NCBI GenBank assembly: GCA_006738865.1
Contig: AP019701.1
Span: 4,761,974 to 4,785,973 of the forward strand
Length of the DNA stretch: 24,000 bases
Reading direction: 5' to 3'
Source of the DNA: Stella sp. ATCC 35155
Lineage (GTDB): Bacteria > Pseudomonadota > Alphaproteobacteria > ATCC43930 > Allostellaceae
Position numbers and translations under genes: made by a program. Below, piece after piece: positions 8,119 through 23,666 of this stretch. Each line of letters opens with the position of its first letter. Position 1 is the stretch's first letter. The notes beneath the pieces were generated by a model. It worked only from the letters and a program-made list of their open reading frames with translations, made no database searches and was not told where the DNA came from.

Positions 8119-8129
8119 GGTCGGCCGGC

Positions 8130-8945
8130 TCAGTCCGGCGGACGCGCCTCGGCGAGCCGCCCGCCCAGCCGGACCGGTGCAACCTGCAGCGCAAGGCCGG
8201 TCGCATCGTCGGTCTCGACGAACACGCCGCAGAGCGTGCCCTCGCCCTCGGCCGGCGACAGCCGTTCGCCCGGCACCTTGCGGACGAAGCGCGCGACGGC
8301 GGGTTCCTTCTTCATGCCGATGACCGAATCATAGTCGCCGCACATGCCCGCATCCGTCTGATAGGCGGTGCCGCCGGCGAGGATCCGCGCGTCGGCCGTC
8401 GGGACGTGCGAGTGGCTGCCGAACACGGCCGATACCCGGCCGTCGAGATGATGGCCCATCGCCATCTTCTCGCTCGTCGCCTCGCCATGGATGTCGACCA
8501 GGATCGCCGCCGCACCGTCGCCCAGGCGATGCGCCTGCACGGCGGCCTCGGCGGCGGCAAAGGGGCAGTCGAGCGCATCCATGAAGAGGCGCGCCATCAG
8601 GTTGACGACGACCACCTGCCGCCCATCGGCGAGCGCGAAGGCATGGGCGCCCTCGCCCGGCGTTCCGGCCGGATAGTTCGCGGGCCGCAGCAGGCGCGGC
8701 TCGGACGCCAGGGTCGAGACGATCTCGCGCTTGTCGAAGAGATGGTTGCCCGTCGTCACGGCATCGACGCCGGCGGCGAAGAACTCGCGGCAGATCGCCT
8801 CGGTGATGCCGAAGCCGGCCGCCGCGTTCTCGCCGTTGACCGCCACGAAATCGATGCCGTGGCGGCGGCGCAGGGCCGGCATCCGGCTGGTGACGGCCTC
8901 GCGGCCGGAGCGGCCGACGACATCGCCGCAGAAAAGCAGTCGCAT
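8130..8945 (-). CDS. ymdB: YmdB-like metallophosphoesterase (TIGR00282-type, 2',3'-cyclic-nucleotide phosphodiesterase family)
   Basis: MRLLFCGDVVGRSGREAV......L+.....DFVAVNGENAA.G.GIT......F...GVDA.T.GNH.....E ... VDIHGEATSEKMAMGHHLDGRVSAV.G.HSHVPTAD..IL.GGTAYQTDAGM.G.YDSVIG is the characteristic motif set of this family. Confidence 0.9.
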   Translation of the reverse strand: MRLLFCGDVVGRSGREAVTSRMPALRRRHGIDFVAVNGENAAAGFGITEAICREFFAAGVDAVTTGNHLFDKREIVSTLASEPRLLRPANYPAGTPGEGAHAFALADGRQVVVVNLMARLFMDALDCPFAAAEAAVQAHRLGDGAAAILVDIHGEATSEKMAMGHHLDGRVSAVFGSHSHVPTADARILAGGTAYQTDAGMCGDYDSVIGMKKEPAVARFVRKVPGERLSPAEGEGTLCGVFVETDDATGLALQVAPVRLGGRLAEARPPD

Positions 8946-8952
8946 CGCCGCC

Positions 8953-9585
8953 TCAGGCCCGGTCGAACCGCCGGAACGCGGCCTCGGTCACGACCGCATC
9001 GAGGCATGCGTCCGTCAGCCCGGCCGGCACCCGCGCGCTGCGCTGGCCCTCATAGGCCACGCCGATCGCGACGATCGGGCGCCGTGCGCGCAGGCCAGCC
9101 AATGTCCGGTCGTAGAAGCCGCCGCCATAGCCCATGCGGCGCCCCGCCTCGTCGAAGGCCAGCAGGGGCACCAGCAGCAGGTCGGGTTCGATCGTCGGCG
9201 CATCCGGTCCCGGCTCCAGCAGGCCGAACGGCCGCGCGACCAGGGGATCGCCCGCCCGCCAGACGCGGAAGGACAGCGGCAGGCCGCGCCGCGGGGTGAC
9301 CGGCAGGCAGAGGGTGCGCCCGGCGGCGGCAAGCCGCGCCATCAGCGGGCGCGGGTCGATCTCGTCGCCGATGGGATGAAAGCCGGAGATGACGGGGCCG
9401 ATCCCGGCGAGCGGCATCGCGGCAAGAAAGTGATCGGCCAGCCGGGCCCCGCTGTCGCCCGGCGCGGCAGCGGCCACGGCGGCACGCCCCGCGATCGCGG
9501 CCGCACGGAAAGCGGCCTTCTCGCGCAGAAGGCCGTCGTCACGGTCGGAAAGGGAAGTGGACGGTGCCGCCTCGGCCGTTGGCAT
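8953..9585 (-). CDS. ygfA: 5-formyltetrahydrofolate cyclo-ligase (MTHFS, YgfA/Fau family)
   Basis: C-terminal motifs DLLLVPLLAFDEAGRRMGYGGGFYDRTL and D..LDAVVTE. The only canonical start is ATG 9585 (MPTAEAAP..); the longer track ORF to 9753 crosses the structured RNA region. Conserved position downstream of zapA and the 6S RNA. Confidence 0.85.
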   Translation of the reverse strand: MPTAEAAPSTSLSDRDDGLLREKAAFRAAAIAGRAAVAAAAPGDSGARLADHFLAAMPLAGIGPVISGFHPIGDEIDPRPLMARLAAAGRTLCLPVTPRRGLPLSFRVWRAGDPLVARPFGLLEPGPDAPTIEPDLLLVPLLAFDEAGRRMGYGGGFYDRTLAGLRARRPIVAIGVAYEGQRSARVPAGLTDACLDAVVTEAAFRRFDRA

Positions 9586-9722
9586 GCTGAACCCTCCGTG
9601 GCCTGCTAACGCAGGTGGGCGCCATGTATCGCGACCACGGTCGCGACAGGGACAGCTCCCGAGAGGTTGTGAAAGGCCCCGGGGTAAATGCTTCCTGACG
9701 CACCAGGCAGCACCGTCCACCC
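9555..9722 (-). ncRNA. ssrS: Candidate 6S RNA (ends approximate, +/-10 nt)
   Basis: A 15-bp long-range inverted repeat has arms at 9706-9720 and 9557-9571. On the minus-strand transcript, 5' GUGGACGGUGCUGCC pairs with GGCGGCACCGUCCAC 3' with one G.U wobble. The same position would be a C/A mismatch on the plus strand, which favours the minus strand. The repeat encloses about 135 nt with further hairpins, including CGCGACcgugGUCGCG and the CCCCGGGG region. The location between zapA and the 5-FCL gene matches the zapA-ssrS-ygfA synteny known from E. coli and many proteobacteria. Not verified with a covariance model. Confidence 0.55.
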
Positions 9723-9727
9723 GAAAG

Positions 9728-10054
9728 CTAGGACTGCTCGAGCCTCGCCGCAATGGTCTCGACGCGCTGGGCGACGAGATCGAGTTCCCGGCCGAGCGAA
9801 TCCTGGACGGAATTCTGGCCCTCGGCCGATCGTTTCAGCCGGGCGATCTCCTCGAACGCGGAGGCGAGTTCGTCGGCGATCAGGAGGCCGGCCATCAGGA
9901 TGATCCGCGCCTCGCCGATCTGGCCGAGTTCGCCCGAAATCTGGGTCGCCTTCTGATCGATGTAGCTCGCCAGGCGGCGCAGCCGCTCCTCTTCGCCGGC
10001 CCCGCAGGAGACGCTGTAGGAACGGCCGTTGATCGTCAGCGCCACGGACGGCAT
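9728..10054 (-). CDS. zapA: Cell division protein ZapA
   Basis: From ATG 10054: MPSVALTINGRSYSVSCGAGEEERLRRLASYIDQKA........G......ILMAGLLIADEL, the ZapA signature (I.G+.Y...C...EE..L..LA..++). 108 aa. Confidence 0.85.
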   Translation of the reverse strand: MPSVALTINGRSYSVSCGAGEEERLRRLASYIDQKATQISGELGQIGEARIILMAGLLIADELASAFEEIARLKRSAEGQNSVQDSLGRELDLVAQRVETIAARLEQS

Positions 10055-10058
10055 CGGC

Positions 10059-10334
10059 TCAATGCGTCCGGTCGAGCGCGCCGCGGGTGCGCGCGATGAC
10101 GCCGTCGAGGCGATGGGCGGCCGCATCCGTCGCCTGTCGCAGCGCCGCCTTCTCGGCTTCCATCTGGGCCAGGGCGCGCGCCAGCCGGTCGCGCTCCTCG
10201 GTCAGGGCGCGGCGCTCGGCCGTCAGCACCGGAATGCGGGCCGCGGCAGCCTCCAGCCGGTCGAGCGCTCGCTCCAGCCGGTCATGGGCGCGCTGCATCG
10301 TCGAGGGGGGAATCGGAATCGTCGGAGCCGCCAT
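10059..10334 (-). CDS. Coiled-coil protein, DUF4164-like (ZapB-like partner encoded upstream of zapA in alphaproteobacteria)
   Basis: 91-aa Ala/Arg/Leu/Glu-rich heptad-like sequence (LERALDRLEAAAA...ERRALTEERDRLARALAQMEAEKAALRQ). It lies 4 nt upstream of zapA on the same strand. The family assignment comes from remembered synteny. Confidence 0.65.
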   Translation of the reverse strand: MAAPTIPIPPSTMQRAHDRLERALDRLEAAAARIPVLTAERRALTEERDRLARALAQMEAEKAALRQATDAAAHRLDGVIARTRGALDRTH

Positions 10335-10459
10335 GGATATAGTTGTAGCGACCGCCGCGGCAGGGCGTCAACGAACCCGGACCGGCACCGATTCGCGCTG
10401 CCGGTTGACTGCGGGGGTCGCGAACGGCAAGTTGCCTGCCCTTTTGCCCCGGATTACCG
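10335..10459. promoter_or_regulatory. Divergent intergenic control region (DUF4164-zapA leftward, tkt rightward)
   Basis: Both flanking genes start here. It contains a TTGACT hexamer (10407-10412) followed 17 nt later by CAAGTT, and a GGCAAgTTGCC palindrome (10425-10435). The promoter assignment is tentative. Confidence 0.35.
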
Positions 10460-12439
10460 ATGCCGAACGCTGCGCCCGCCCCCGATCTCCGCGCCATGGC
10501 GAACGCCATCCGTGCCCTTTCCATGGACGCCGTCGAGGCGGCCAAGTCGGGTCACCCCGGGATGCCCATGGGCATGGCGGACGTGGCGACGGTCCTTTTC
10601 ACCCGGTTCCTCGCCTACGACCCGGCCGATCCCGCCTGGCCCGACCGCGACCGCTTCGTGCTGTCGGCCGGCCACGGCTCGATGCTGCTCTATTCCCTGC
10701 TCCATCTGACCGGCTACGCCGACATGACGATGGACGAGCTGCGCCGCTTCCGCCAGCTCGGCAGCCGCACCGCCGGGCACCCGGAATTCGGCCATGCCGG
10801 CGGCATCGAGACCACGACCGGCCCGCTCGGCCAGGGGCTGGCGACCGCGGTCGGCATGGCGATCGCCGAGCGGCACCTCAACGCCGCGTTCGGGGACGAA
10901 CTCGTCGACCACCGGACCTATGTCGTCGCCGGCGACGGCTGCCTGATGGAGGGCATCAGCCACGAGGCGATCTCGCTCGCCGGCCATCTCAAGCTCGGCC
11001 GGCTGATCGTGCTCTTCGACGACAACGAGATCTCGATCGACGGCCGCACCGGCCTGTCGGTCTCGGACGACCAGCAGGCGCGCTTTCGCGCCAGCGGCTG
11101 GGACGTGCAGGCGGTCGACGGCCATGATCCGGACGCCGTCGCGGCCGCCATCGAGCGCGCCCAGGCGACCGACACGCCCTCGCTCATCGCCTGCCGGACC
11201 CAGATCGCCTATGGCGCGCCGACCAAGGCCGGCACCGCGGCCGCCCATGGCAGCCCGCTCGGCGCCGGCGAGATCGCCGGCGCGCGGGAGAGGCTCGGCT
11301 GGACGGCCGCCCCCTTCGAGGTCCCGGCGGACATCCTGGCTGCATGGCGCGACGCCGGCCGCCGCGCGGCCGGCCGCGCCGAGGCCTGGCGGAAGCGGCA
11401 CGCGGCCGCTGCCGGGCGCGCCGAGTTCGACCGGCGGATCGCGGGCGAAGCGCCGGCGGCCCTCGCGCCGGCATTTGCGGAATACAAGGCGGCCCTCATC
11501 GCCACCCCGCCCAAGGTCGCGACCCGCCAGGCCTCCGGCAGCACGCTCGACATGCTCGCCGGCGTCATGCCCGAACTCGTCGGTGGGTCGGCCGACCTGA
11601 CGCCCTCGAACAACACCAAGGCGAAGGGACAGACGCCACTGGCGCCCGGCAGCTACGGCGGCACCTACATCCACTACGGCGTGCGCGAGTTCGGCATGGC
11701 GGCGGCCATGAACGGGCTGGCCCTCCATGGCGGCATCGTGCCCTATGGCGGCACCTTCCTCGTGTTCACCGACTATGCCCGGCCGGCAATCCGCCTGTCG
11801 GCGCTGATGGGCGCGCGCGTCATCTACGTCATGACGCATGATTCGATCGGCCTCGGCGAGGATGGTCCGACGCATCAGCCGGTCGAGCATCTGGCGGCCC
11901 TGCGCAGCATCCCGAACCTGCATGTCTTCCGCCCGGCCGATGCGGTCGAGACGGCGGAATGCTGGGAACTGGCACTGGCCGCGCGCTCCACGCCGTCCGT
12001 CATCGCGCTGACCCGCCAGGGCGTGCCGGCGCTGCGGCAGGAGGCGACCACCAACCGGTCCGCCCGCGGCGCCTATGTGCTGGCCGAAGCCGACGGCGCG
12101 CGGGCGGTGACGCTGCTCGCCACCGGCTCGGAGGTCGGCCTCGCCATGGAGGCGCGCAAGCTGCTCGCCGCCGACGGCATCGCCGCCGCGGTCGTGTCGA
12201 TGCCCGCGTTCGATCTCTTCGAGGCACAGGATGCCGCCTACCGCGCCGAAGTGCTGGGCAGCGCTCCCAGGATTGCGGTCGAGGCGGCCGTGCGCTTCGG
12301 CTGGGACCGCTGGCTCGGCGAGCGCGGCGCCTTCGTCGGCATGCCGGGATTCGGGGCATCGGCGCCGGCCGGCGACCTCTTCCGCCACTTCGGGATCACC
12401 GCCGAGGCGGTTGCCGCCGCGGCGCGCGACCTCATCTAG
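10460..12439 (+). CDS. tkt: Transketolase
   Basis: [18 protein letters not shown]...[25 protein letters not shown], the ThDP motif [34 protein letters not shown], and later [26 protein letters not shown]. 659 aa. Confidence 0.97.
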
Positions 12440-12445
12440 TAGTAT

Positions 12446-12477
12446 CTGCGGGAATGAAATCGCCCGCGGAACGTTTG
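12446..12477 (+). terminator. Possible weak intrinsic terminator or attenuating hairpin after tkt
   Basis: CTGCGGG(12446-12452)-10 nt loop-CCCGCGG(12463-12469) forms a 7-bp stem including one G.U pair. It is followed by AACGTTTGC, which has only a short T run. Confidence 0.25.
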
Positions 12478-12589
12478 CAGGGCGTCCCGCGTCCTTCTAC
12501 GTCCGGCCGGCATTCCTGAACGCCGGGCCGCGGCGCTCGACCGCCCGGTTGCGCCCACCCCATCCGAAGCCAGGAGGAACCCCCCCATC

Positions 12590-13600
12590 ATGGCCACCCG
12601 CCTCGCGATCAACGGTTTCGGCCGCATCGGCCGTCTCGTCTTCCGCGCCCTCGCCGAGAGCGGCCGCACCGACCTCCAAGTCGTCGGCATCAACGACCTG
12701 GGCCCGGTCGAGACGAATGCGCATCTGCTGCGCTACGACAGCGTCCATGGCCGCTTCCCCAAGGAGGTGAAGACGGGCGAGGGCATGATGGATGTCGGCT
12801 ACGGACCGATCCGGGTGAGCGCCGAGCGCGACCCGGCAAAGCTGCCGTGGAAGGACCTCGGCGTCGACATCACGCTGGAATGCACCGGCATCTTCACCAA
12901 GCGCGACGCGGCCGCCAAGCACCTGGAGGCGGGCGCCAAGCGGGTGCTCGTATCGGCCCCGGCCGACGGCGTCGACCTCACCGTCGTCTATGGCGTCAAC
13001 CACGACCAGTTGAAGCCCGAGCACACGATCGTCTCGAACGCTTCGTGCACGACCAACTGCCTGGCGCCGATGGCCTATGTGCTGCACCAGGCGATCGGCA
13101 TCACCAACGGCTTCATGACGACGATCCACGCCTATACGGGCGACCAGCCGACCGTGGACACGATGCACAAGGATCTGCACCGGGCGCGCGCCGCCGCGCT
13201 CTCGATGATCCCGACCTCGACCGGTGCCGCCCGTGCCGTCGGCCTCGTGCTGCCGGAACTCAAGGGCAAGCTCGACGGCACCTCCATCCGGGTGCCGACC
13301 CCGAACGTCTCCGTCGTCGACCTGACCTTCAACGCCGCCCGCGACACGACGGTCGAGGAGATCAACCAGGTCATGACCGACGCCGCCGCCAGCAGCCGCT
13401 TCAAGGGCATCATCGAGATCAATAGCGCGCCGCTGGTGTCGAGCGACTTCAACCATGTCCCGGCCAGCTCGACCTTCGACGTCGGGCAGACGGCGGTCAT
13501 CGACAAGCGCCTGTGCCGCGTCCTTTCCTGGTACGACAACGAATGGGGCTTCTCGAACCGGATGCTGGACACGGCCGCGGCGATGGCGAAGCTGGGCTGA
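12590..13600 (+). CDS. gap: Type I glyceraldehyde-3-phosphate dehydrogenase
   Basis: INGFGRIGRLVFRA, the active site SNASCTTNCLAP, WYDNEWGFSNRMLD. A strong SD AGGAGGA lies upstream of ATG 12590. Confidence 0.97.
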   Translation: MATRLAINGFGRIGRLVFRALAESGRTDLQVVGINDLGPVETNAHLLRYDSVHGRFPKEVKTGEGMMDVGYGPIRVSAERDPAKLPWKDLGVDITLECTGIFTKRDAAAKHLEAGAKRVLVSAPADGVDLTVVYGVNHDQLKPEHTIVSNASCTTNCLAPMAYVLHQAIGITNGFMTTIHAYTGDQPTVDTMHKDLHRARAAALSMIPTSTGAARAVGLVLPELKGKLDGTSIRVPTPNVSVVDLTFNAARDTTVEEINQVMTDAAASSRFKGIIEINSAPLVSSDFNHVPASSTFDVGQTAVIDKRLCRVLSWYDNEWGFSNRMLDTAAAMAKLG

Positions 13601-13623
13601 CCGCCGCGGGCGGGGAGCGGGCC

Positions 13624-14022
13624 GTGGAGGTGCGGTCGTCCGCCGAAGCGCTGACGGCGGCCGATGCCGCCGCCGCGCTCGGTCGGCCGCTGCTGCTGGT
13701 CAGCCCCCGCGGGGGCGCGGCGTCGTTCGGTCCGGCCATGTTCGCCGCCATCGTCGAACGCGCCCGGGCCCGCCACGACGCGACGCGCGGCCTGCTCGAC
13801 TGCGAGGAGGCCGAGGGGCATGTGCTGCTGGCACTGCGCGTCGGCATCGATGCTGTGATCTACAAGGGCCCGGATTTCGTCCGCGAGAAGCTGGCGGCGA
13901 TCGCCGCCTGCGAAGGGCGCCGGGTGCTGGCGGAGCGGCCGCCGGCACTCGTCCTCCATCGCGAGCGTGACCCTATCGCAGCCTGCCGCCGCTGGCTTGC
14001 GCAGCCCGAGATATCCCACTGA
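13624..14022 (+). CDS. Hypothetical protein (about 132 aa) occupying the gap-fba spacer
   Basis: The frame of track ORF 13513..14022 shows strong G/C preference at third codon positions throughout, read by eye. It has no ATG after the gap stop. GTG 13624 is preceded by GGGGAG 8 nt upstream. No family recognised (..LLLVSPRGGAASFGPAMFAAIVERARA...GHVLLALRVGIDAVIYKG..). Confidence 0.5.
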   Translation: MEVRSSAEALTAADAAAALGRPLLLVSPRGGAASFGPAMFAAIVERARARHDATRGLLDCEEAEGHVLLALRVGIDAVIYKGPDFVREKLAAIAACEGRRVLAERPPALVLHRERDPIAACRRWLAQPEISH

Positions 14023-14079
14023 CTTGACATTTCGGGCCGCTCCCGACGGGCGGCCCCCGAATAGGGAAGGAGAAGTCCG

Positions 14080-15009
14080 ATGAAGGTGACGCAGAAGGTC
14101 AAGCGCATCCTCGACGGGTACGAGAGCGACAATCCCGGCACCAAGGCCAACCTCGCCCGCATCCTGATGCAGGGCCGGCTGGGCGGCACCGGCAAGCTGG
14201 TGATCCTGCCGGTCGACCAGGGCTTCGAGCACGGGCCCGCGCGCAGCTTCGCGCCGAACCCCGAGGGCTACGACCCGCACTATCATTTCCAGCTCGCGAT
14301 CGATGCCGGCCTTTCGGCCTATGCCGCGCCGCTCGGCATGATCGAGGCGGGCGCCGACAGCTATGCCGGCGCCATCCCGACGATCCTCAAGGTCAACAGC
14401 GCCAACAGCCTCGCCCGCGACAAGGCCGGACCGTCGCAGGCCGTGACGGGTTCCGTCCGGGACGCCCTGCGGCTCGGCTGCTCGGCCATCGGCTTCACGA
14501 TCTATCCCGGCTCGGACAACGCCTTCGGCATGTTCGAGGAACTGACGGTGCTGGCCGAGGAGGCGAAGGCGCACGGGCTGGCTGTCGTCGTCTGGTCCTA
14601 TCCGCGCGGCGGCGACCTCTCCAAGGCCGGCGAGACGGCGATCGACATCTGCGCCTATGCCGCGCACATGGCGGCCCTGCTCGGCGCCCACATCATCAAG
14701 GTGAAGCCGCCGACGGCGCATCTCGAACTCGACGCCGCCAAGAAGGTCTACGAGTCGAAGAAGATCGACGTCTCGACGCCGGCCGCGCGCTTCGCCCACG
14801 TCGTCCAGTCCTGCTTCGCCGGCAAGCGCATCGTCGTCTTTTCGGGCGGCGAGGCGAAGGATCTGGAGGGCATCTACAACGAGGCCCGCGCCATCCGCGA
14901 CGGCGGCGGCAACGGCTCGATCATCGGCCGCAACACCTTCCAGCGCCCCAAGGCCGAGGCGCTGGCGATGCTCGACCAGATCGTCAAGATCTACCAGGGC
15001 AAGGCCTGA
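14080..15009 (+). CDS. fbaB: Class I fructose-bisphosphate aldolase (DhnA/FbaB-type)
   Basis: [29 protein letters not shown]....NP.GYDP.Y.F.LAI.AG..A.A...G ... AHIIKVK (Schiff-base Lys context) ... SGG......IGRN.FQR. SD GGAAGGAGAA lies before ATG 14080. Confidence 0.9.
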
Positions 15010-15038
15010 GCCCGGTGGCAGCGCAAGGAACCCGCACC

Positions 15039-15680
15039 ATGGACGGCGACGACCGCTGCCGCCTCTACCTGATCACGCCCGCGACCCTGGAGCCGGCGGC
15101 CTTCGCCGACCGGCTCCAGGCCGCGCTCGACGGCGGCGACGTCGCCTGCCTGCAGCTTCGGCTGAAGGACGTGGATGACGACGCCTTCCGGCACGCGATC
15201 GAGCGGCTGATGCCGATCGCGCATGCCCGGGACGTGCCGTTCCTGGTCAACGACCGGCCCGACCTCGCGGCCGAGTTCGGCTGCGACGGCGCGCATGTCG
15301 GACAGCAGGATACCCCGTATGCGGAGGCACGCCGCCTCCTCGGGCCCGAGGCGATCGTCGGCGTCACCTGCCACGACAGCCGCCACCTCGCCATGGAGGC
15401 GGCCGAGGCCGGCGCCGACTACGTCGCGTTCGGCGCCTTCTTCCATACCGAGACGAAGCCGCCGCGCTTCTGGGCGACGCCCGAGCTGATCGAGGCCTGG
15501 ACCCAGTCGACCACGGTGCCCTGCGTCGCGATCGGCGGCATCAAGCCGGACAATCTGGGCCCGATCGTGCGGGCAGGCGCGGACTTCATCTGTGTCGTCA
15601 CGGGGGTCTGGGACCATCCGGAGGGCCCGGCTGCCGGCGTTGCCGACTACAACCGGGCGATCCGGGAGGCGCTCGGCTGA
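15039..15680 (+). CDS. thiE: Thiamine-phosphate synthase
   Basis: RLYLITP.......F...L..AL.GG.VA.LQLR.K........A..L..IA....[11 protein letters not shown]....CDGAHVGQ.D ... [13 protein letters not shown] ... VAIGGI are ThiE motifs. ATG 15039 has AGGA about 10 nt upstream. The track ORF begins at GTG 15015, an alternative start. Confidence 0.9.
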
Positions 15681-16851
15681 CGGCACCGGCGGACAAGCCG
15701 GCTGACGGCCCGGGCTCCGCCGCCACCGTGCGAATGGGCACAGCGAGCCCGAGTGCAGCCAGCCGGTCGCGGATCTCGCCCGCATAGATCGGATTCATCG
15801 CCACGACGAGGTCAGGCCGCAGGGCCGGCAACCGCTCCGGCAGGATCACCGGATGGGCGGTGCCGGCGAGAAAGGTTCCGTCCTTGCGCGGGTTGATGTC
15901 GACCACGGCCACGACGCCGGGCACCGGGGCGACCGCCGTCAGGAACGCGACGGCCTTCGAGCCGCCGCCCCAGAGCGCGACGCGACCGGCCCCCGCCAGC
16001 CGGCGGCGCCACGCGTCGATCGCCGCCGCCGCCCGTTCGGCGAACCCGTCGGCCGGCCGCGAGTGGCGAGGCGGCGCCGACCGGAGCGGGCGACCTTCGG
16101 CGACCGCTTCCAGGGTGAGATACTGGCCGCCATAAGCCTCCCGGACCGCCTCGACGCGAAAGCCGGCGGCGGCCGCGATGCCGGCCAGGGCGCCGGCGTC
16201 GAAGTAGTTGCAGTGCTCGTAGTAGACGTCCCAGAAGCCTGCCCGGTCGAGGATCGGCCGGGCGTCGGGCACCTGCAGGAAGAGCCGGGTGCCTGGCCCC
16301 TGTCGCGCGGCGACCAGCGCCAGCAGCGCCCCCGGCCGGGCCACATGCTCCAACGTCATCTTGCACACGACCAGGTCGGCCGGCGCCCGGGGCATGTCCT
16401 CGTAGAGCATCGGCACGATCCGCGTCGGCCCGGCAGCCGCACCCGTTGCCGCCCAGGCGGGGTCGCAACCGATGCCCTCGCATCCCGCCTCGCCGCACAG
16501 CAGGGACAGGAATTCGCCCTGACCACAGCCGATCTCCAGAACGCGCCGCCCGGCGAGCGGGATTCGGCCTGCCAGTTCCTTGGCCAGAGCACGATGAAAG
16601 GCGTCGAAGGTGGGCGAATGGCTCTGCGTGCTTTCGTAGCCGGGCGAGTAGTCGACGCGCGCCGGATCGAACGCCGCGTTGACGACGAGGCCGCACGCCG
16701 GACATTGCGCCAGCCGAATGTCGCCGCGGGGCACCGCCAGGGCCTGCGCCGGATCGGCGTGCAGACGGACGCTGTTCGTCGGCACCCGATCGACCGCGAA
16801 GAAGGGGGCGCCCATGCCGGGAGCGCCGCACCCGGGACAGGGGCCGGGCAT
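15598..16851 (-). CDS. Zn-ribbon / class I SAM methyltransferase / C-methyltransferase-C-terminal-domain protein (divergent paralogue, 'MT-B')
   Basis: This is the last 417 aa of the 1302-aa track ORF. The N-terminal CxxC...CxxC ribbon is CPGCG...[12 protein letters not shown] motif I is [21 protein letters not shown] motif is present. The C-terminal Rossmann-like part is [14 protein letters not shown]....VVDINP.K.G.FL.G...P. ATG 16851-16849 overlaps the upstream gene's TGA (ATGA). The stop at 15598 lies inside the 3' end of thiE on the opposite strand. Confidence 0.8.
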
Positions 16852-18098
16852 CAGGCGTCGAGCCCGATCACGCGCGGCACCGGCAGGGGCACGATGAACC
16901 GCCCGCCGCGTCGCCGGTACTCCGCCTGCTGCGCCAAGATCTCTTCGGCGAAGTTCCAGGCGAGCAGCAGGACGTGGCTCGGCATGGCCTCCACCAGCCG
17001 CGCGGGCGGCACGATCGGCAGGCGGGATCCGCCGAGCCGCCGGCCCCACTTGTGCGGATTGAGATCGGCCACGAAGGCGATCGTGCGGTCGTCGATGCCG
17101 CAATAGGCGAGCAGGGTCGTGGCCTTGGCGGCAGCGCCATAGGCCGCGATCGAGGCGCCGTCGGCGATCAGCTTCGCCAGCAGAGCGTTGAGCCGATCCC
17201 GCAGGGTGTGGACCGCGGCCGCGAAGCGCGCAAGGACGGGGCCGCCGACCAGCCCGCACCGCCGCTCCTCGATGCGCAGCGCCGCGACGGCCTCGGACGG
17301 GGCGCCGTCGGATCCGGCATGCACCCGCAACGAGCCGCCCTGGGTTGTGAGGCGTTCGACGTCGAGGATGCGAAGGCCGTAGCGGATCAGCAGCGCCTCC
17401 AGGCTCGTCAGCGAGAAGTAGCAGAGGTGCTGGTGATAGATCATGTCGAAGGCGAGGCCGCCCACGAGATCGCCGAGATAGCCGACCTCGAACACCGCGC
17501 GGCCGCCGGGTGCGAGCAGCTGGGCGACGCCGGTCACGAAGTCGCCGGGATCGGGGACATGCGCAAGGACGTTGGCGGCATAGATGAGATCGGCCGACCA
17601 CCCCTCCTCCACCAGCCGCCGCGCCAGCGCGGCATCGAAATAGGCGTCGAGCGTCGGCACCCCGACGTCGCGCGCGACCGATGCCGGACCGGGCGAAGGG
17701 TCGATGCCGAGGACCGCCAGCCCGCGCGCAGCGAGATGCCGCAGCATCGCGCCGTCGTTGCTGGCGATCTCCACCACCCGAGCATGGCGCTGCAGGCCGT
17801 AGCGCCCGGCCAGTGCCGTGGCGGTACTGGCGAAATGGGCGCGCAGCGCCGGTGAGACGGACGAGTAGTAGGGATAGCCCTGGCCGAAGAGATCGTCCGG
17901 CGGCACCGTGACGGTCAGCTGGACCAGCCCGCAGTCGCTGCAGATCACCACCGCCAGCGGCTCGGTCCGGTCCGCCTCCGGCGGATCCTCCGGCGCCGCC
18001 AGCCGGTCGGCCAGCGGCGTGCGCCCGAGGTCGAGCACCGGCACGAGGTTCGTGTGCCCACAACTGCGGCAACATCGAACCCGTACCGCCTTGCCCAT
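16851..18098 (-). CDS. NDP-hexose C-methyltransferase, TylCIII-like (Methyltransf_13 / SAM MT / Methyltransf_14 architecture, 'MT-A')
   Basis: CRSCGHTNLVPVLDLGRTPLADRL....PL.VVICSDCGLVQL....PPDDLF...YPYYSSVS is the Zn-ribbon domain. VVEIASNDGAMLRHL is the family-typical E-I-x-S/C-NDG SAM motif. Also present are FDMIYHQHLCYFS, GGSLRVHA, and the C-terminal IAAYGAAAKATTLL.YCGI....I.FV.D.NP.K.G....GS.+PI....L......VLLLAWNFAEEI. ATG 18098 has SD GAGGGGGG 5 nt upstream; the track ORF starts at GTG 18104. Confidence 0.85.
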   Translation of the reverse strand: MGKAVRVRCCRSCGHTNLVPVLDLGRTPLADRLAAPEDPPEADRTEPLAVVICSDCGLVQLTVTVPPDDLFGQGYPYYSSVSPALRAHFASTATALAGRYGLQRHARVVEIASNDGAMLRHLAARGLAVLGIDPSPGPASVARDVGVPTLDAYFDAALARRLVEEGWSADLIYAANVLAHVPDPGDFVTGVAQLLAPGGRAVFEVGYLGDLVGGLAFDMIYHQHLCYFSLTSLEALLIRYGLRILDVERLTTQGGSLRVHAGSDGAPSEAVAALRIEERRCGLVGGPVLARFAAAVHTLRDRLNALLAKLIADGASIAAYGAAAKATTLLAYCGIDDRTIAFVADLNPHKWGRRLGGSRLPIVPPARLVEAMPSHVLLLAWNFAEEILAQQAEYRRRGGRFIVPLPVPRVIGLDA

Positions 18099-18110
18099 CA
18101 CCACCCCCCC

Positions 18111-19160
18111 TCAGGTCGGGCGCGCCGTGCTTGCCGGACGCAGGTCGCCCGTGACCCGGCCGGCCGCGCGCTGGCGCAGCAGGTGGGGGAGGCGGTTGAA
18201 GCGGGCGCCCTCGAAATCGCAGGTCGGCAACCCCAGTCCCACGATCCTGCCGTGCAGGTCCGCCACCCCCTTGGCGATCGTCCAGCACGGCCGGAAGTCC
18301 GGGAGGATCTGCGCGACCCGCGCGAAGGAGACGCGATAGCTGCGCCGGTCCGGTTCCGCCCCCGTCATGCGCTCGACACCGGCTCCCGGAATAGCGGCTG
18401 CCACGAGCTCTGCCAGGTCCGCGATCCGGACGTTGTCGTCGTCGCTTCCGACATTGACGGTCTGGGCGTGGACGGCCTGCCGCGGCGCATCGAGCGCGGC
18501 CACCAGCGCGTCCGCCATGTCGGCGACATGGATCAGCGGACGCCATTGCGTGCCGGTGCTCTTCAGCAGGACGCGCCCGCTGGCGATGGCATGGGCGGTC
18601 ATGTTGTTGGCGACGAGATCGAACCGCAGCATCGGCGAGTACCCGTAGGCGGTCGCGAAGCGCAGCAGGATCGGCGTGAAGGCATCCGCGGCAAGCTGCA
18701 GGATCGCGGTCTCGGCGGCCAGTTTGGCGGCGGCATACGGCGTCACCGGCCGCGGCGGCGTTGCCTCGTTCACCACGTCGTCGCCTGCGGCGCCATAGAC
18801 GCTGCAGGTCGAGGCGAAGACGAAGCGGCCGACGCCCGCACGCCGGGCGGCGGCGGCCAGCGCCGCAGCGGCATCGCCATTGATGCCGGCCGTCAATGCC
18901 GGGTCGAGGTCGCCGAGCGGATCGTTGCTCAGGCCGGCAAGATGCACGACGGCATCGATGTCTTCGAGGTCGGCGGCGCCGACATCGCGGATGTCGCGGC
19001 ACAGGCTCCGGTCCGGCTGCGGCGACGGCGACGGGCCCGGCACCGCGCATTCCGCGAAGAGCCCCGTATCGATGCCCAGAACCCAATGCCCCCGTCGCTG
19101 CAGGAGGGGCAGCAGAATGGCGCCGACATAGCCGCGGTGGCCGGTGACGCAGATCCTCAT
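18111..19160 (-). CDS. Extended-SDR NAD(P)-dependent sugar epimerase/reductase-like enzyme
   Basis: MRICVTGHRGYVG carries the TGxxGxxG Rossmann motif. The catalytic Ser context is FASTCSVYG, and YxxxK is PYAAAKLAAE. LRFATAYG is also present. 349 aa. ATG 19160 overlaps the rfbF-like stop (ATGA). The remainder of the 665-aa track ORF upstream is an off-frame shadow. Confidence 0.85.
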   Translation of the reverse strand: MRICVTGHRGYVGAILLPLLQRRGHWVLGIDTGLFAECAVPGPSPSPQPDRSLCRDIRDVGAADLEDIDAVVHLAGLSNDPLGDLDPALTAGINGDAAAALAAAARRAGVGRFVFASTCSVYGAAGDDVVNEATPPRPVTPYAAAKLAAETAILQLAADAFTPILLRFATAYGYSPMLRFDLVANNMTAHAIASGRVLLKSTGTQWRPLIHVADMADALVAALDAPRQAVHAQTVNVGSDDDNVRIADLAELVAAAIPGAGVERMTGAEPDRRSYRVSFARVAQILPDFRPCWTIAKGVADLHGRIVGLGLPTCDFEGARFNRLPHLLRQRAAGRVTGDLRPASTARPT

Positions 19161-19912
19161 GGCGTCGGGACCCGACAGCGCGACCATGGCGCCGAGGCGC
19201 CTCGGCAGACCGCCGCCAGGTCTTCGAGATCGCCCGGCGTATCGATGCAGCGCCAGAAGCCGGCATGCCGATAGGCGGCGAGCCGGCGGGCCGCCGCGAG
19301 GGGTACCAGGACATCCCGTTCCCAGGAACAGCGATCGCCGCCGATCCACGCCAGCGCTTCCGGCTCGACCACGAAGAAGCCGCCATTGATCCACTGGTCG
19401 TCGAGCCGCGGCTTCTCGCGGAACCCGACGGCGAGGTCGTCCTCCAGACGGAGATGGCCGAACCGGCTCGGCGGGTGGACCGCCGCCACCGTCGCGAGAC
19501 GGCCATGCCGGCGATGGCAGGCGACCAGGGCCGCGAGGTCGAGATCGGTCAGCCCGTCGCACCAGGCCAGGACGAACGGCGCTCGTTCGAGATGGCCTGC
19601 CACCCGGGCGATGCGGCCTCCGGTCTCGACATCGGTCCCGGTATCGAGAAGGGTCAGCCGGTGGGCCAGGCCGAGCGCCGCCGTATCGCAGCGGACCGGC
19701 CCCGGTCGCCCGGCCGCGCCCGGCGCGAACGCCCGCACCACCGCATCGGCATGATGCCCGAGGGCGACGAAGACGTCCGCGATGCCGAAGGCGTTCAAGT
19801 GGCGAACCGCATGCCAGAGCAGCGGCCGTCCGGCGACGGGCACCAGGGGCTTCGGGCTGCCGACGGCGGCCAGTCGGCTGCCGCGGCCGCCTGCGAGGAT
19901 CACGCCCTGCAT
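19157..19912 (-). CDS. rfbF: Glucose-1-phosphate cytidylyltransferase (RfbF-like)
   Basis: MQGVILAGGRGSRL.....KPLVPVAGRPLLWH, LDTG....TGGR+.RV, WCDGLTDLDL, FREKP......INGGFFV.EP and GFW.C+DT..D...L......APW align along the whole length with remembered RfbF/DdhA sequences. 251 aa. Confidence 0.88.
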   Translation of the reverse strand: MQGVILAGGRGSRLAAVGSPKPLVPVAGRPLLWHAVRHLNAFGIADVFVALGHHADAVVRAFAPGAAGRPGPVRCDTAALGLAHRLTLLDTGTDVETGGRIARVAGHLERAPFVLAWCDGLTDLDLAALVACHRRHGRLATVAAVHPPSRFGHLRLEDDLAVGFREKPRLDDQWINGGFFVVEPEALAWIGGDRCSWERDVLVPLAAARRLAAYRHAGFWRCIDTPGDLEDLAAVCRGASAPWSRCRVPTP

Positions 19913-19921
19913 CGACCTGGG

Positions 19922-21031
19922 TCAGCCGGCGGCTTGGGAGGAAACGCGCGCGCCGGACCGCGCGGCCGCCCCGAGCGCGACGACGAGCCGATCGCAGAGA
20001 TCCGCGAGCCCGGCATGCTCCTGGAGGACGACCAGCGCGCGCGAGGCCCGGTCGAGGAGCCGCCGGCCCAGCATCATGCGTCCCGCGCGCCCCTCCACCT
20101 CGCCCCACAGCGGTCGGTTGATGCCGGCGATGGAGATCAGCGCATCCGCTTCCTGCCGCATCCGCGAACCATAGAGTTCACGCTGCGTCCGGATCGCCAC
20201 CCGTGCCAGCGTCTGGCGCTGCTCCTCCGACACCCGGGCAAGGGAGATCATTTCGAGATAGGCCCAGGTGAAGTCGATATAGGGTGTCAGACGATCGAAC
20301 CGGCGGAACAGGCTGCGCTCGTCCAGTTCCTGAACCGCTTCTTCGGAAAAGACCCGCGCCAGGTGATCGACCTGGTTGCGCCGGTGGCGGCGCAGCCGCA
20401 GCAACGGCTCGTCCACGAACCGAATGTCGGCATAGAGCGCCAGCTCGCAGACGAAGGCGACGTCGGAGCCGTAGAGCGGCCGTTGCGGCTGCAGGCGTTC
20501 GAACACCGTGCGGCGATACATGCCGAAGAAGTAGTTGGCGTAGTGCCAGCCGCGCATGACGGTGGCGGCGGCGGCCACCGGGTTCGCATGCCGGGTCTCG
20601 AAGCTCCGCTGCGGCTCCCACTCGTCCTGCCGCAGGGTGCGGGATTCCTCGTCGATCGCGACGATGCGGGCGGCGACCAGGCCGACTGCGGGATCGGCCC
20701 GGATCCGGTCGAGCAATCGTTCGACATAGGTCGGTTCGAGGACGTCGTTTGCCGCCAGCGGCACGACGAAGTCGCCGGTGGCGACCGCATGGATGCGGTT
20801 GTAGTTCCGAAGCTGGCCGATGTTGACGGCATTGCGATGGTAGGAGAAGCGGCGGTCGGCGAGAAAGTCGCGGCAGATTGCCGAGGTGCGGTCGGTCGAG
20901 GCATTGTCGAAGATGTGGACCTCGACAGCGCGGTGGGTCTGGCGCCGGATCGATTCCAGCATCTCGCCGACATGCCGTTCCTCGTTGAAGACGGCGAGGC
21001 AGAGGCTCACCGTCCCGGTACTTGCCACCAT
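19922..21031 (-). CDS. Family-2 (GT-A fold) glycosyltransferase, apparently soluble, with about 150-aa C-terminal helical extension
   Basis: From ATG 21031: VSLCLAVFNEERHVGEMLESIRRQTHRAVEVHIFDNASTDRT...ATGDFVVPLAANDVLEP.YVERLL is a typical GT2 N-terminal half. No hydrophobic TM-length segment was seen by eye. The track ORF extends 78 codons upstream into the intergenic region. Confidence 0.85.
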   Translation of the reverse strand: MVASTGTVSLCLAVFNEERHVGEMLESIRRQTHRAVEVHIFDNASTDRTSAICRDFLADRRFSYHRNAVNIGQLRNYNRIHAVATGDFVVPLAANDVLEPTYVERLLDRIRADPAVGLVAARIVAIDEESRTLRQDEWEPQRSFETRHANPVAAAATVMRGWHYANYFFGMYRRTVFERLQPQRPLYGSDVAFVCELALYADIRFVDEPLLRLRRHRRNQVDHLARVFSEEAVQELDERSLFRRFDRLTPYIDFTWAYLEMISLARVSEEQRQTLARVAIRTQRELYGSRMRQEADALISIAGINRPLWGEVEGRAGRMMLGRRLLDRASRALVVLQEHAGLADLCDRLVVALGAAARSGARVSSQAAG

Positions 21032-21230
21032 TCGCGCGTCTCCGCGGGGCGCGACCCATCCCGGAGCCGCCTTGGCGCAATTATCACGAAGCGGGTCCAG
21101 AATTCTACAATTGGAGTTGAATCGCGCTCGCGCACTCGCGTGCGGCGCGCATCGGGCCGGCAGGTTGCGTCCGCGAGGGGCTGCTGATAGGTTCCGCGCC
21201 CACGCCAGCAGGGCGCCCCCCGGGAAATCC
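21032..21230. promoter_or_regulatory. Divergent control region between the GT2 operon and efp
   Basis: Both genes start here, 199 bp apart. It includes a locally AT-richer patch at 21074-21125 with CAATTG and GAATTC palindromes. A possible minus-strand promoter is TTGTAG (21110-21105) - 19 nt - GATAAT (21085-21080). That assignment is tentative. Confidence 0.4.
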
Positions 21231-21797
21231 ATGAAGATCACAGCCATCGAAATCAAGCCCGGCAATATCCTCGAGCATCAGAACCGCCTCTGGGTCGTCC
21301 TGAAGCGCGAGTTGATCCAGCCGGGCAAGGGCGGCGCATTCGCCCAGGTCGAGATGCGGGACATCCGCACGGGCAACAAGACGAACGAGCGGTTCCGCAC
21401 CCAGGAGACGGTCGAGCGCGTCCGCATGGACGAGAAGGAATACCAGTTCCTCTTCGCCGAGGGCGACACGCTGACCTTCATGGATCAGGAATCCTACGAG
21501 CAGATCACCGTCGACCGCGCCAAGGTCGGGGATCCGGCCGACTTCCTGCGCGACGGCATGACCGTGACGATCCAGACCTACGAAGGCGAGGCCATGGGCG
21601 TGACCTTGCCGGCAACGGTCACGATGCTGCTGACCGAGGCCGACCCCGTGGTGAAGGGCCAGACCGCCTCTTCGTCGTACAAACCGGCAATGCTCGAGAA
21701 CGGCCGCAAGATCCTGGTTCCGCCCTTCATCGAGGCCGGTACCCGCATCGTCGTCGACACGACCGAAGGCACCTACGTCGAGCGGGCCAAGGACTGA
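21231..21797 (+). CDS. efp: Translation elongation factor P (Lys-type loop)
   Basis: MKITAIEIKPGNILEHQNRLWVVLKRELIQPGKGGAFAQVEMRDIRTGNK....F is the EF-P domain I with a PGKG loop (Lys33). The C-terminal VKG.TASSSYKPA.LE.G..I.VP.FI..G..I.VDT..G.Y..RA is also present. 188 aa. Confidence 0.96.
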   Translation: MKITAIEIKPGNILEHQNRLWVVLKRELIQPGKGGAFAQVEMRDIRTGNKTNERFRTQETVERVRMDEKEYQFLFAEGDTLTFMDQESYEQITVDRAKVGDPADFLRDGMTVTIQTYEGEAMGVTLPATVTMLLTEADPVVKGQTASSSYKPAMLENGRKILVPPFIEAGTRIVVDTTEGTYVERAKD

Positions 21798-21804
21798 CCC
21801 GGCA

Positions 21805-22620
21805 ATGGCCCGTCCCTCGCCCGTCGTCAATGTCATGACCGCCACCGCCCGCAAGGCGGCGCGGGATCTCGTGCGGGACTTCGGCGAGGTCGAGCAGTTG
21901 CAGGTCTCGCGCAAGGGTCCGGCCGATTTCGTCAGCGCCGCGGACCTGCGGGCGGAAAAGACGATCCATCGCGAGCTCGCCAAGGCGCGGCCCGGGTATG
22001 GCTTCCTCATGGAGGAGTCGGGCAGCAGCAGCAGCGGCGACGGACGTCACCGCTGGATCGTCGACCCGCTCGACGGAACGACGAATTTCCTGCATGGCGT
22101 GCCCCATTTCGCCATTTCGATCGCGCTCGAGGTCGACGGAGAGATCGTGGCCGGGGTCGTGCATCAGCCCCTGACCGACGAGACCTACTGGGCCGAGCGC
22201 GGCCAGGGCGCCTATCTCAACGACCGGCGCCTGCGCGTTTCCTCCCGCACCAAGCTCGAGGATTCGCTGATCGGCACGGGCATTCCCTTCAAGGGCGAGG
22301 AGGGCCACGGCCACTATCTGGCGACGCTCGCCAAGATCGCGCCGATGGTCAGCGGCGTGCGCCGCATGGGCGCGGCCTCCCTCGACCTCGCCTTCGTCGC
22401 GGCCGGCCGCTTCGAGGCCTTCTGGGAGTTCGAACTCAACCCCTGGGACATCGCGGCCGGGATCCTGCTCGTCCGCGAAGCCGGAGGCTACGTCACCACC
22501 CCGACCGGCGACCCCGACGTGCTCAAGAGCGGCGACGTGGTCGCGGCCAACGACCGGCTGCACCAGCCGATGGCGGAACTGATCCGCCAGGTTCCGCGCA
22601 CGGTCGGCGCCGCCGCCTGA
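21805..22620 (+). CDS. suhB: Inositol monophosphatase family protein (SuhB-like)
   Basis: Motifs FLMEESG, WIVDPLDGTTNFLHG.PHFAISIAL and WD.AAG.L+V.EAGG.V. 271 aa. The efp-suhB adjacency is common in alphaproteobacteria. Confidence 0.9.
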   Translation: MARPSPVVNVMTATARKAARDLVRDFGEVEQLQVSRKGPADFVSAADLRAEKTIHRELAKARPGYGFLMEESGSSSSGDGRHRWIVDPLDGTTNFLHGVPHFAISIALEVDGEIVAGVVHQPLTDETYWAERGQGAYLNDRRLRVSSRTKLEDSLIGTGIPFKGEEGHGHYLATLAKIAPMVSGVRRMGAASLDLAFVAAGRFEAFWEFELNPWDIAAGILLVREAGGYVTTPTGDPDVLKSGDVVAANDRLHQPMAELIRQVPRTVGAAA

Positions 22621-22724: not shown

Positions 22725-23666
22725 ATGACGCAGGACCGATCCACCCGAAGGCTGGGGTTGGCGCTGATGCTGGCCGTCGCCGGCATCCTGCAGCCCGCCG
22801 GCGCGCGGGCGGCATCCGGCGGCGACGTGCATGTCGATCTCAGCGCCCTCGATCAAATGGGCTTCACCCGGGAGCGGCGGCCGGACGATGCCCGCCCGCT
22901 CGTGCTCACGCCGCCGGGCGGACAACCGGCTGCCGCCCGGCGCGGACCATCTGCCGCCCCGGTGAGCGCCGCCGCCCCGCCTGCAGCCACGGCCCCGGCA
23001 GCCACCGCCCCACCGGTCGCAGCCCCAGCGGTCGCCGCGCGCTCGTCGGCGCCAGCGGCCGCAGCGCCCGAACGGCCGGCCAGGGCCGCGGCGTCCCCGG
23101 CGGCGCCACCGCCGCCCAGCCCCTCCCCGGCACCGCCGAAGCAGGCGGCGCCCGCGACCGCGCCGCCGCCGCGCGATGTCGCGGCCGCCACGGCCACCCC
23201 GGCGCCGCCCGCCCGACCGGCACCGACCGCACCCGCGCCGGCCCAACCCACGCGGTCGCGCGCCGCGCCGCCGGCTCCGGTCGTCGCGCCGCCGCCGACA
23301 CCGGCCGCGCCGTCGCAGACCGCGGCCCTGCCGCCACCGGCCGTCGCGCAACGCCGCGGCGAGGCCCGCGTCAGCTTCCCCGCCGGCGGCACGGACCTGC
23401 CCTCCTCTGCCCGTTCCGAGCTCGACCGGGTGGCGGGCCGGCTTGCCGCCGACGAGGCGCTCCGGCTGCAGCTGAACGCCTATGCGGCAGGCGAAGGCGA
23501 ACAGTCGAGCCAGGCGCGACGGCTGTCCCTCTCGCGTGCGCTGGCGGTGCGCGCCTACCTGATCGACAAGGGCGTCCGCAGCACCCGCCTCGACGTGCGG
23601 GCGCTGGGTCAGCCCCAGGACGACGGCCCGGCCGACCGCGTCGACCTGGTGGTCGTGGGACGCTGA
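22725..23666 (+). CDS. Secreted or anchored OmpA_C-like peptidoglycan-binding protein with a long Pro/Ala-rich linker
   Basis: SD GAGGAGG precedes ATG 22725. The N-terminal signal-like segment is RRLGLALMLAVAGILQPAGARAAS. A Pro/Ala-rich region of about 150 aa follows. The C-terminal OmpA-like fold pattern is V.F..G...L......LD.VA..L.......L.L.AYA.......S...RLSLSRA.AVRAYLI.KGV...RL.V.A.G. Confidence 0.8.
   Translation: MTQDRSTRRLGLALMLAVAGILQPAGARAASGGDVHVDLSALDQMGFTRERRPDDARPLVLTPPGGQPAAARRGPSAAPVSAAAPPAATAPAATAPPVAAPAVAARSSAPAAAAPERPARAAASPAAPPPPSPSPAPPKQAAPATAPPPRDVAAATATPAPPARPAPTAPAPAQPTRSRAAPPAPVVAPPPTPAAPSQTAALPPPAVAQRRGEARVSFPAGGTDLPSSARSELDRVAGRLAADEALRLQLNAYAAGEGEQSSQARRLSLSRALAVRAYLIDKGVRSTRLDVRALGQPQDDGPADRVDLVVVGR
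22905..23351 (+). repeat. Low-complexity Pro/Ala-rich coding region (degenerate AP/PA/APA repeats)
   Basis: Residues ~61-209 of the OmpA-like protein are almost only A, P, S, T, R (e.g. APPAATAPAATAPPVAAPAVAA, PPPPSPSPAPP, PAPPARPAPTAPAPAQP). No exact long tandem unit was seen. Confidence 0.7.

Follow-up and report, generated by a model that had tools for sequence, protein, structure and literature searches.

A compact five-gene operon of Allostella sp. ATCC 35155 with a probable role in the synthesis and transfer of a C-methylated CDP-hexose

Which sugar is made by five closely packed genes that lie between thiE and efp in an alphaproteobacterial genome, and to which acceptor is it attached? 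These questions are raised by a stretch of 24,000 nucleotides (24 kb) from Stella sp. ATCC 35155 (NCBI GenBank assembly GCA_006738865.1, contig AP019701.1, positions 4,761,974 to 4,785,973 of the forward strand). The whole stretch is called the window here, and positions refer to it unless another record is named. Allostella is a star-shaped alphaproteobacterium that was earlier named Stella. The five genes encode a glycosyltransferase of family 2 (GT2), a cytidylyltransferase (CT), an extended short-chain dehydrogenase/reductase (SDR) and two methyltransferases (MT1 and MT2). Judged from sequence comparisons, the operon probably makes a rare C-methylated hexose activated by cytidine diphosphate (CDP), and the soluble GT2 would transfer it, most likely to a lipid-linked surface glycan.

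All of the five predicted open reading frames (ORFs) were confirmed. They lie on the minus strand and fill positions 15598-21031.

19922-21031, minus strand: GT2-family glycosyltransferase, 369 aa, with an N-terminal GT-A domain and a helical C-terminal domain
19157-19912, minus strand: CT, an RfbF/DdhA-like sugar-1-phosphate cytidylyltransferase, 251 aa
18111-19160, minus strand: extended SDR, 349 aa
16851-18098, minus strand: MT1, a TylC3/TcaB9/KijD1-type nucleoside diphosphate (NDP)-sugar 3-C-methyltransferase, 415 aa
15598-16851, minus strand: MT2, a distant paralogue of sugar C-methyltransferases, 417 aa

The junctions between these genes are short. The GT2 stop codon is followed by a 9-nt gap before CT, CT and SDR overlap in ATGA, a 12-nt spacer with GAGGGGGG precedes the MT1 start, and MT1 and MT2 share one nucleotide in TGATG. 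A preliminary description of this DNA had reported the first three junctions in the same way and had taken the last for another ATGA overlap, which is to be corrected. Its view of five co-directional, tightly packed genes was confirmed, and the protein families that it predicted agree with the domains returned by Pfam and NCBIfam profile searches. The five genes are evidently one tightly coupled operon. Scans for sigma-70 consensus promoters and for terminators gave no match, including no internal terminator-like site, a result that is uninformative at the GC content of the window (about 72%).

The beginning of the proposed pathway is indicated by the CT. It matches PF00483 in Pfam and aligns over its full length with RfbF of Salmonella typhi (1tzf, E 2.3e-46; query residues 3-244 against chain residues 5-256). 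Therefore, a CDP-hexose is the likely starting point. MT1 contains PF08421, PF13489 and PF08484, all three above the Pfam cutoff, and it has full-length matches to KijD1 (5t64, E 5e-90), TcaB9 (E about 1e-83) and MtmC (E 7e-76). Its Y-H-Q-H stretch aligns with Y222-D-E224-H225 of TcaB9. By homology, CDP-hexose formation and at least one TylC3-type C-methylation dependent on S-adenosylmethionine (SAM) are predicted.

The SDR matches PF01370 (148 bits, Pfam) and carries the motifs TGHxGYxG, S-T-C-S-V-Y-G and YxxxK. The CDP-glucose 4,6-dehydratase model TIGR02622 gave no match to it at E<=0.01, and the NCBIfam models of dTDP-glucose dehydratase (dTDP, deoxythymidine diphosphate) reached 38 bits only. 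Dehydratases of the 4,6-type carry an Asp-Lys or Asp-Glu acid/base dyad after the catalytic Thr. In the SDR, the residues that follow the catalytic Ser/Thr are T-C-S and the dyad is absent; 60 of the 66 orthologues have S-C-S at this place, within S-S-C-S-N-Y-G, and the same motif is present in 'DdhB' of Sinorhizobium meliloti. Over the 66 orthologues, the conserved form of the motif is F-S-S-S/T-C-S-N-Y-G. The SDR is evidently not an RfbG- or RmlB-type dehydratase. Its closest matches in the Protein Data Bank (PDB) are 6vo6 (E 1e-23, residues 2-302), 6wjb, MoeE5 and TunA, and 4-epimerases score nearly as high as 6vo6 in the same search. We take 6vo6 to be Cj1427, a C4-dehydrogenase. Cj1427, itself an SDR, performs a C4 oxidation and sets the 4-keto sugar free without dehydration (PMC10680097). 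Its tightly bound NADH is recycled by alpha-ketoglutarate in a ping-pong mechanism, and a separate reductase is needed afterwards (PMC10680097). Because the dehydratase dyad is missing and C-methyltransferases need a keto group, we infer that the SDR of the operon works as a CDP-hexose C4 oxidoreductase whose oxidation proceeds without 4,6-dehydration.

MT2 is 100% identical to an NCBI entry named 'NDP-hexose methyltransferase [Allostella sp. ATCC 35155]'. In Pfam it matches PF13489 (85 bits) and, weakly, PF08484 (27 bits, cutoff 23.5), and the zinc-ribbon family PF08421 was not matched. Its N-terminal CxxC...CxxC is nonetheless conserved, with C50 and C53 invariant and C5 and C8 kept in at least 90% of the sequences. 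In the PDB, MT2 has a remote match to MtmC/KijD1 (E about 2e-9). Both MT2 and a third methyltransferase of related loci (MT3) contain Y-Y-E-H, and the E-H pair of the TcaB9 active site is kept. The family is large: 1866 matches were obtained with a word-indexed search and 1448 clusters at E<=1e-30 with an exhaustive one, and relatives are encoded in at least 438 GTDB species-genome stretches (438 of 600 among the matches listed). MT2 and MT3 did not separate into clean orthogroups by average-linkage clustering. Two proteins, P0259 (820 aa) and P0260 (815 aa), are natural fusions of two MT2-type units in a single polypeptide. Such fusions are consistent with MT2 and a third methyltransferase acting together.

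The following reaction order is proposed. At first, the RfbF-like enzyme would form a CDP-hexose, most likely CDP-glucose from glucose 1-phosphate and CTP. Second, the SDR would oxidise C4 with no 4,6-dehydration. Third, MT1 would methylate the carbon beside the keto group, which is C3 by homology, and MT2 may add a second methyl group on a carbon or possibly on an oxygen, with a third one added in related modules. Fourth, the keto group would be reduced again, conceivably by the same SDR. It is possible, if doubtful, that the product is an undescribed CDP-hexose that keeps its 6-hydroxyl group and bears two C-methyl branches, or three in the larger modules. CDP-vinelose of Azotobacter was set aside because vinelose, a 6-deoxy sugar, needs a dehydratase and the SDR is apparently not one; no mention of this compound was found in the literature searched.

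The same proteins can be read in another way, which we consider rather unlikely. The SDR would be only an epimerase or a terminal reductase, the MT2-type enzymes would be O-methyltransferases, and the product would be an O-methylated, at most mono-C-methylated CDP-hexose. The neighbours of the SDR in NCBIfam and the PDB are mostly 4-epimerases (GalE, MoeE5, 6wjb), but its top PDB match is 6vo6, presumably Cj1427 with the C4 dehydrogenase function given above, and the SDR is the sole candidate for supplying a keto group in the conserved module. Such a group is demanded by the chemistry of the TylC3/TcaB9/KijD1 enzymes, of which MT1 is a full-length homologue. MT2 is remote from the proven C-methyltransferases, and its conserved E-H base could take a proton from either a hydroxyl or a carbon; however, it keeps their three-domain architecture together with Y-x-E-H. 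O-methylated terminal sugars are common in the lipopolysaccharide (LPS) of alphaproteobacteria, which also speaks for O-methylation.

The distribution of the genes was analysed in eighty fetched loci, and 49 of them with a length of at least 15 kb are referred to as long loci. The eighty come from Chloroflexota, Acidobacteriota, Planctomycetota, Nitrospirota, Chlamydiota (Waddliaceae), Bacteroidota, Ignavibacteriota, Verrucomicrobiota, Actinomycetota and Myxococcota, and from alpha-, gamma- and delta-proteobacteria. The order CT-SDR-MT1-MT2 was found in 42 of the 80 loci, in more than 10 phyla, and the order of the window, GT2-CT-SDR-MT1-MT2, in 18 of the 80, among which 8 have exactly two methyltransferases and 9 have a third. 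Because the same five-gene order recurs in these 18 unrelated loci, the arrangement is far beyond chance, and the expectation that the genes travel together was borne out. Across the module loci, CT, SDR, MT1 and MT2 are 37-52% identical to those of the window. Clustering of all ORFs in the fetched loci showed that the only consistently linked genes are CT, SDR, MT1, one or two MT2-type methyltransferases and a GT2 without transmembrane (TM) segments. The preliminary description had regarded a minimal CDP-linked cassette with TylC3-type enzymes as uncommon; this does not hold, as the module occurs in hundreds of species of many phyla. Its idea of a self-contained module for a CDP-activated, C-methylated hexose with its own transferase is well in line with the recurrent gene set.

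The methyltransferase content is variable. In the long loci, the sets are MT1+MT2+MT2' (19 loci), MT1+MT2 (18) and MT2+MT2' (5). The variation between loci suggests one methyl group per methyltransferase, and the module would then make a family of differently methylated sugars. By its gene content, the cassette of the window is a two-methyltransferase member of this multi-phylum module. Standalone modules exist, for example in loci L090 and L004, the latter with a variant cassette that sits between the gene for an NAD kinase and those for saccharopine dehydrogenase/ornithine decarboxylase.

9716-15035 of locus L004 (GCA_050186895.1): variant cassette with a window-type glycosyltransferase (46% identity), CT, SDR and two MT2-type enzymes, and no TylC3-like MT1

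The nature of the acceptor was approached through the GT2 and the genomic context. The GT2 matches PF00535 (83 bits, Pfam), and its residues D42, D47 and D96 are invariant. Its AlphaFold2 model (predicted local distance difference test score, pLDDT, 85) has a GT-A fold with a helical C-terminal domain. Foldseek matched the model to CgT, SpsA, TarS and TarP (E 1e-13) and also to RmlT and K4CP; over its full length, the fold agrees best with those of the polymer-decorating enzymes TarS, TarP and RmlT. The window GT2 itself is a rare protein: among 5.8 billion proteins, only 7 are close homologues over the full length. The more remote of these 7 (46% and 42% identity) still have CT, SDR and two methyltransferases as neighbours, in genomic surroundings that are unrelated, and the window-type GT2 clusters with the GT2 of the canonical module when all ORFs of the fetched loci are compared. 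As had been noted by eye, none of the five proteins has a TM-like segment in the hydropathy scan, where the maximal Kyte-Doolittle value over 19 residues (KD19) of the GT2 is 1.18. The sole hydrophobic peak is in MT2 (KD19 2.10) and is not taken as a TM segment, because it lies in a Rossmann-type stretch common to soluble homologues. A role of the GT2 as a GtrB/ArnC-like polyprenyl-phosphate glycosyltransferase was rejected, as TM helices are absent from it and from nearly all of the 48 module GT2s.

The context of the module points mainly to surface polysaccharides. A gene for a Wzx-type flippase, a Bac_transf priming transferase or a Wzz/tyrosine-kinase protein was found within 10 kb in at least 18 of the 49 long loci, and the count rises to 29 of the 49 when GT4 genes are added. 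In 16 of the remaining loci, GT4, with 13 of 128 ORFs, clearly outnumbers every other neighbour family, and further Wzx-type, PIG-L and GT2 genes are also present. The module locus of Azospirillum thermophilum contains Wzz, Bac_transf, WecG and GT4, and plasmids of Leisingera carry rfbF, SDR and three methyltransferases together with a polysaccharide export gene. That homologous sets sit in polysaccharide loci was named in the preliminary description as an argument against its own reading; it is borne out in part.

On pSymB of S. meliloti 1021, ddhA (SMb21416), ddhB (SMb21417), SMb21418 and their neighbours lie inside a Wza/Wzc/GT8/PIG-L locus. Insertions in ddhA and ddhB gave significantly lower fitness under polymyxin B in a transposon sequencing (Tn-seq) study (PMC5539429). 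Earlier work, as it is cited in that article, connects ddhB mutants with altered LPS (PMC5539429). In the reference record, the ddhA homologue is split over two frames (locus L094, 20780-21620, corresponding to NC_003078.1 at about 692.7-693.5 kb; residues 1-63 versus 88-244). The split suggests that the record contains a frameshift or a sequencing error, although ddhA was treated as functional in the Tn-seq work. Beyond this genetics, neither a characterised homologue of the module nor a description of the product sugar was found in the literature searched; a homologous cluster with a known product and acceptor, which the preliminary description had allowed for, did not turn up. In the last step of the proposed pathway, the TM-less GT2 would add the sugar at the cytoplasmic face to an acceptor that is most likely lipid-linked LPS, O-antigen or exopolysaccharide (EPS), and the genes for assembly and export of the glycan would be located elsewhere in the genome.

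Several observations weigh against a C-methylated CDP-hexose destined for a surface glycan. At first, the score of the CT against TIGR02623 is 214.9 bits in two stretches, which is under the equivalog cutoff of 300.25. Second, MT1 has Gln at the position of Glu224 of TcaB9, a residue that is the commonest one at this position among the module MT1 orthologues. Third, the use of one SDR for both the oxidation and the re-reduction is without direct precedent in such a context, because Cj1427 needs alpha-ketoglutarate and a separate reductase. Fourth, no flippase, polymerase, priming transferase or exporter is encoded within the 24-kb window, as the preliminary description had stated. Likewise, no polysaccharide genes were found near the cassette in the window, in its close relative L002 or in L090.

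The surroundings of the cassette were compared with syntenic loci. As had been described, it lies directly between housekeeping genes, namely thiE and efp-suhB.

15015-15680, plus strand: thiE (PF02581 on close homologues), one border of the insertion, convergent with MT2
21032-21230, intergenic: divergent region between GT2 and efp, 199 bp, which presumably holds the operon promoter and forms the other border of the insertion
21231-21797, plus strand: efp (EFP domain in the syntenic loci L002 and L091)
21805-22620, plus strand: suhB (Inositol_P domain in the syntenic loci L002 and L091)

Locus L091, from a metagenome-assembled genome whose thiE is 85% identical, has yebC, the amidase gene, ymdB, tkt, gap, the aldolase gene and thiE in the order of the window. 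In this locus, only about 100 bp separate thiE from efp-suhB, and the cassette is absent, so that the predicted adjacency of thiE and efp is indeed seen. Homology to this empty site stops within the 3' end of thiE and restarts at 21223, 8 bp before the efp start codon. In L002, a 94%-identical relative, the same five genes occupy the same site and are 94-98% identical. In L003, a metagenome-assembled locus of a more distant relative in which the glycosyltransferase is 64% identical, a larger and different glycan cluster stands beside thiE, and it is followed by three tandem RTX calcium-binding repeat proteins of 391-408 aa.

7644-11682 of locus L003 (GCA_050187535.1): glycan island with MT1, a window-type glycosyltransferase, CT, an RmlC-like protein, a DRL/SAF oxidoreductase, a second GT2 and SDR

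Because thiE abuts efp in the syntenic L091, the cassette is evidently a strain-variable insertion at the thiE|efp site, gained or lost between strains. The GC content at third codon positions (GC3) is 0.84-0.885 in the cassette genes and thus lower than in the flanking genes (0.90-0.94). At the cassette borders, no flanking direct or inverted repeats above chance were detected, and no integrase or transposase is encoded in the window. MT2 and thiE overlap by 83 nt at their 3' ends (15598-15680), and the same overlap is present in L002. The MT2 tail that runs over thiE is a low-complexity Pro/Gly/Ala extension; it lies outside the conserved domain, because alignments with homologues cover no more than about 88-90% of the query.

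The preliminary description had favoured a closed cassette that decorates one cytoplasmic acceptor, such as a protein, a small molecule or a membrane lipid, and not an exported polysaccharide. We now regard this as unlikely. It would fit the solubility of the GT2, the window devoid of the export and polymerisation functions listed above, the standalone six-gene versions such as L090 and L004, and the fact that no gene outside the module is universally linked to it. However, soluble GT2s typically act on lipid-linked or polymeric glycans, as the best folds (TarS, TarP, RmlT) illustrate, and genes for GT4, Wzx, Bac_transf, Wzz and Wza are strongly over-represented around the module. The genetics of S. 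meliloti, as far as the citing article reports it, leads to LPS as well. That efp stands next to the cassette is a coincidence, as L091 carries the same efp and lacks the cassette. EF-P itself was considered as the acceptor and rejected: the efp of L091, with the same Lys-type loop, does without the cassette, and remoter cassettes are not beside efp. RTX proteins were also dismissed as acceptors, since RTX or calcium-binding proteins occur near modules in L003, Inquilinus and Leisingera, in a few alphaproteobacterial loci only. Secreted RTX glycanases commonly accompany alphaproteobacterial EPS loci.

It is highly improbable that the cassette is a non-functional, decayed remnant of a larger glycan island like that of L003: the bigger cluster beside thiE in L003 (second GT2, RmlC-like protein, DRL/SAF oxidoreductase, RTX proteins) and the run of MT2 into thiE might hint at decay, but the five ORFs are intact and translationally coupled, L002 retains all of them at high identity, and the same gene order is recurrent in other phyla.

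The remaining part of the window consists of housekeeping genes, namely a tolQ-like gene, ruvB, yebC, an amidase gene, ymdB, the gene for 6S RNA, tkt, gap and an aldolase gene.

9560-9716, minus strand: 6S (SsrS) RNA (Rfam RF00013, 73.9 bits, gathering score 46.4)

The 6S RNA gene overlaps a spurious ORF of 266 aa (8953-9753). On the minus strand at 1376-3220, an ORF of 614 aa has RuvB domains over residues 287-591 only, and its N-terminal 286 aa are probably an over-extension or an upstream in-frame gene. A plus-strand ORF of 169 aa without a Pfam match (13513-14022) separates gap from the class I aldolase gene, and L091 has an unannotated ORF of 135 aa at the corresponding position. ARAGORN called an 88-nt tRNA-Ala(GGC) at 23051-23138 on the minus strand, inside the Pro/Ala-rich part (77-79% GC) of an OmpA-family ORF (22725-23666). 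This call is probably a false positive, because Rfam found no tRNA there.

For the window itself, the cassette is an ordinary accessory glycan-decoration operon. Its wider meaning comes from the module: a compact CDP-based gene set with two or three TylC3-like methyltransferases is widespread and linked to surface polysaccharides. If the sugar is indeed an undescribed one with several C-methyl branches, the module would represent a widespread, unrecognised branched-sugar pathway that feeds surface glycans in more than 10 phyla. The SDR of S. meliloti is annotated as a 4,6-dehydratase though its family is without the dehydratase residues. Identification of the product would name an LPS or EPS sugar, correct a propagated annotation and add enzymes for glyco-engineering.

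Among studied systems, the ddhA/ddhB locus of S. meliloti is the closest relative of the cassette. It shares the CT, the SDR (45.5% identity, with the motifs SSCS-N-YG and YxxxK), an MT1-type enzyme (47%), MT2-type enzymes (36-39%) and a GT2. In contrast to the cassette, it has three methyltransferases and is embedded in the Wza, Wzc, GT8 and PIG-L locus, and its GT2 and one methyltransferase are apart from the other module genes. The label 'CDP-glucose 4,6-dehydratase' of its ddhB is an annotation only. Apart from a few LPS structures, actinomycete antibiotics are the main known source of C-methylated branched sugars. The antibiotic enzymes TylC3, MtmC, TcaB9 and KijD1 resemble MT1 over the full length, with the same zinc-ribbon, SAM-binding and C-terminal architecture, and they share the fold type and the E-H pair with MT2. 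They act on dTDP-4-keto-2,6-dideoxy or 3-amino sugars provided by RmlA and RmlB, whereas the cassette has an RfbF-like CT and a non-dehydratase SDR, and its MT1 has Gln in the place of Glu224. The context differs too: the cassette is part of a glycan module, and no genes for the biosynthesis of an aglycone lie close to it.

Cj1427 of the Campylobacter jejuni capsule pathway offers the activity that C-methyltransferases would need, a non-dehydrating C4 oxidation. However, its similarity to the SDR is low, it serves a heptose linked to guanosine diphosphate (GDP), and it is followed by separate epimerases and reductases that are absent from the cassette. The CDP-3,6-dideoxyhexose pathway (RfbF-RfbG-RfbH-RfbI) begins with the same type of enzyme, but the cassette has neither an RfbG-type dehydratase nor the E1/E3 pair (RfbH/RfbI) and contains methyltransferases instead. 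Virenose in the LPS of Coxiella burnetii is a GDP-linked 6-deoxy-3-C-methyl sugar, for which a TylC3-like methyltransferase acting at the nucleotide-sugar level has been proposed. It is comparable with the predicted product as a C-methyl-branched LPS sugar made as a nucleotide sugar, and it differs in its GDP linkage, its true 4,6-dehydratase Gmd and its single methyltransferase.

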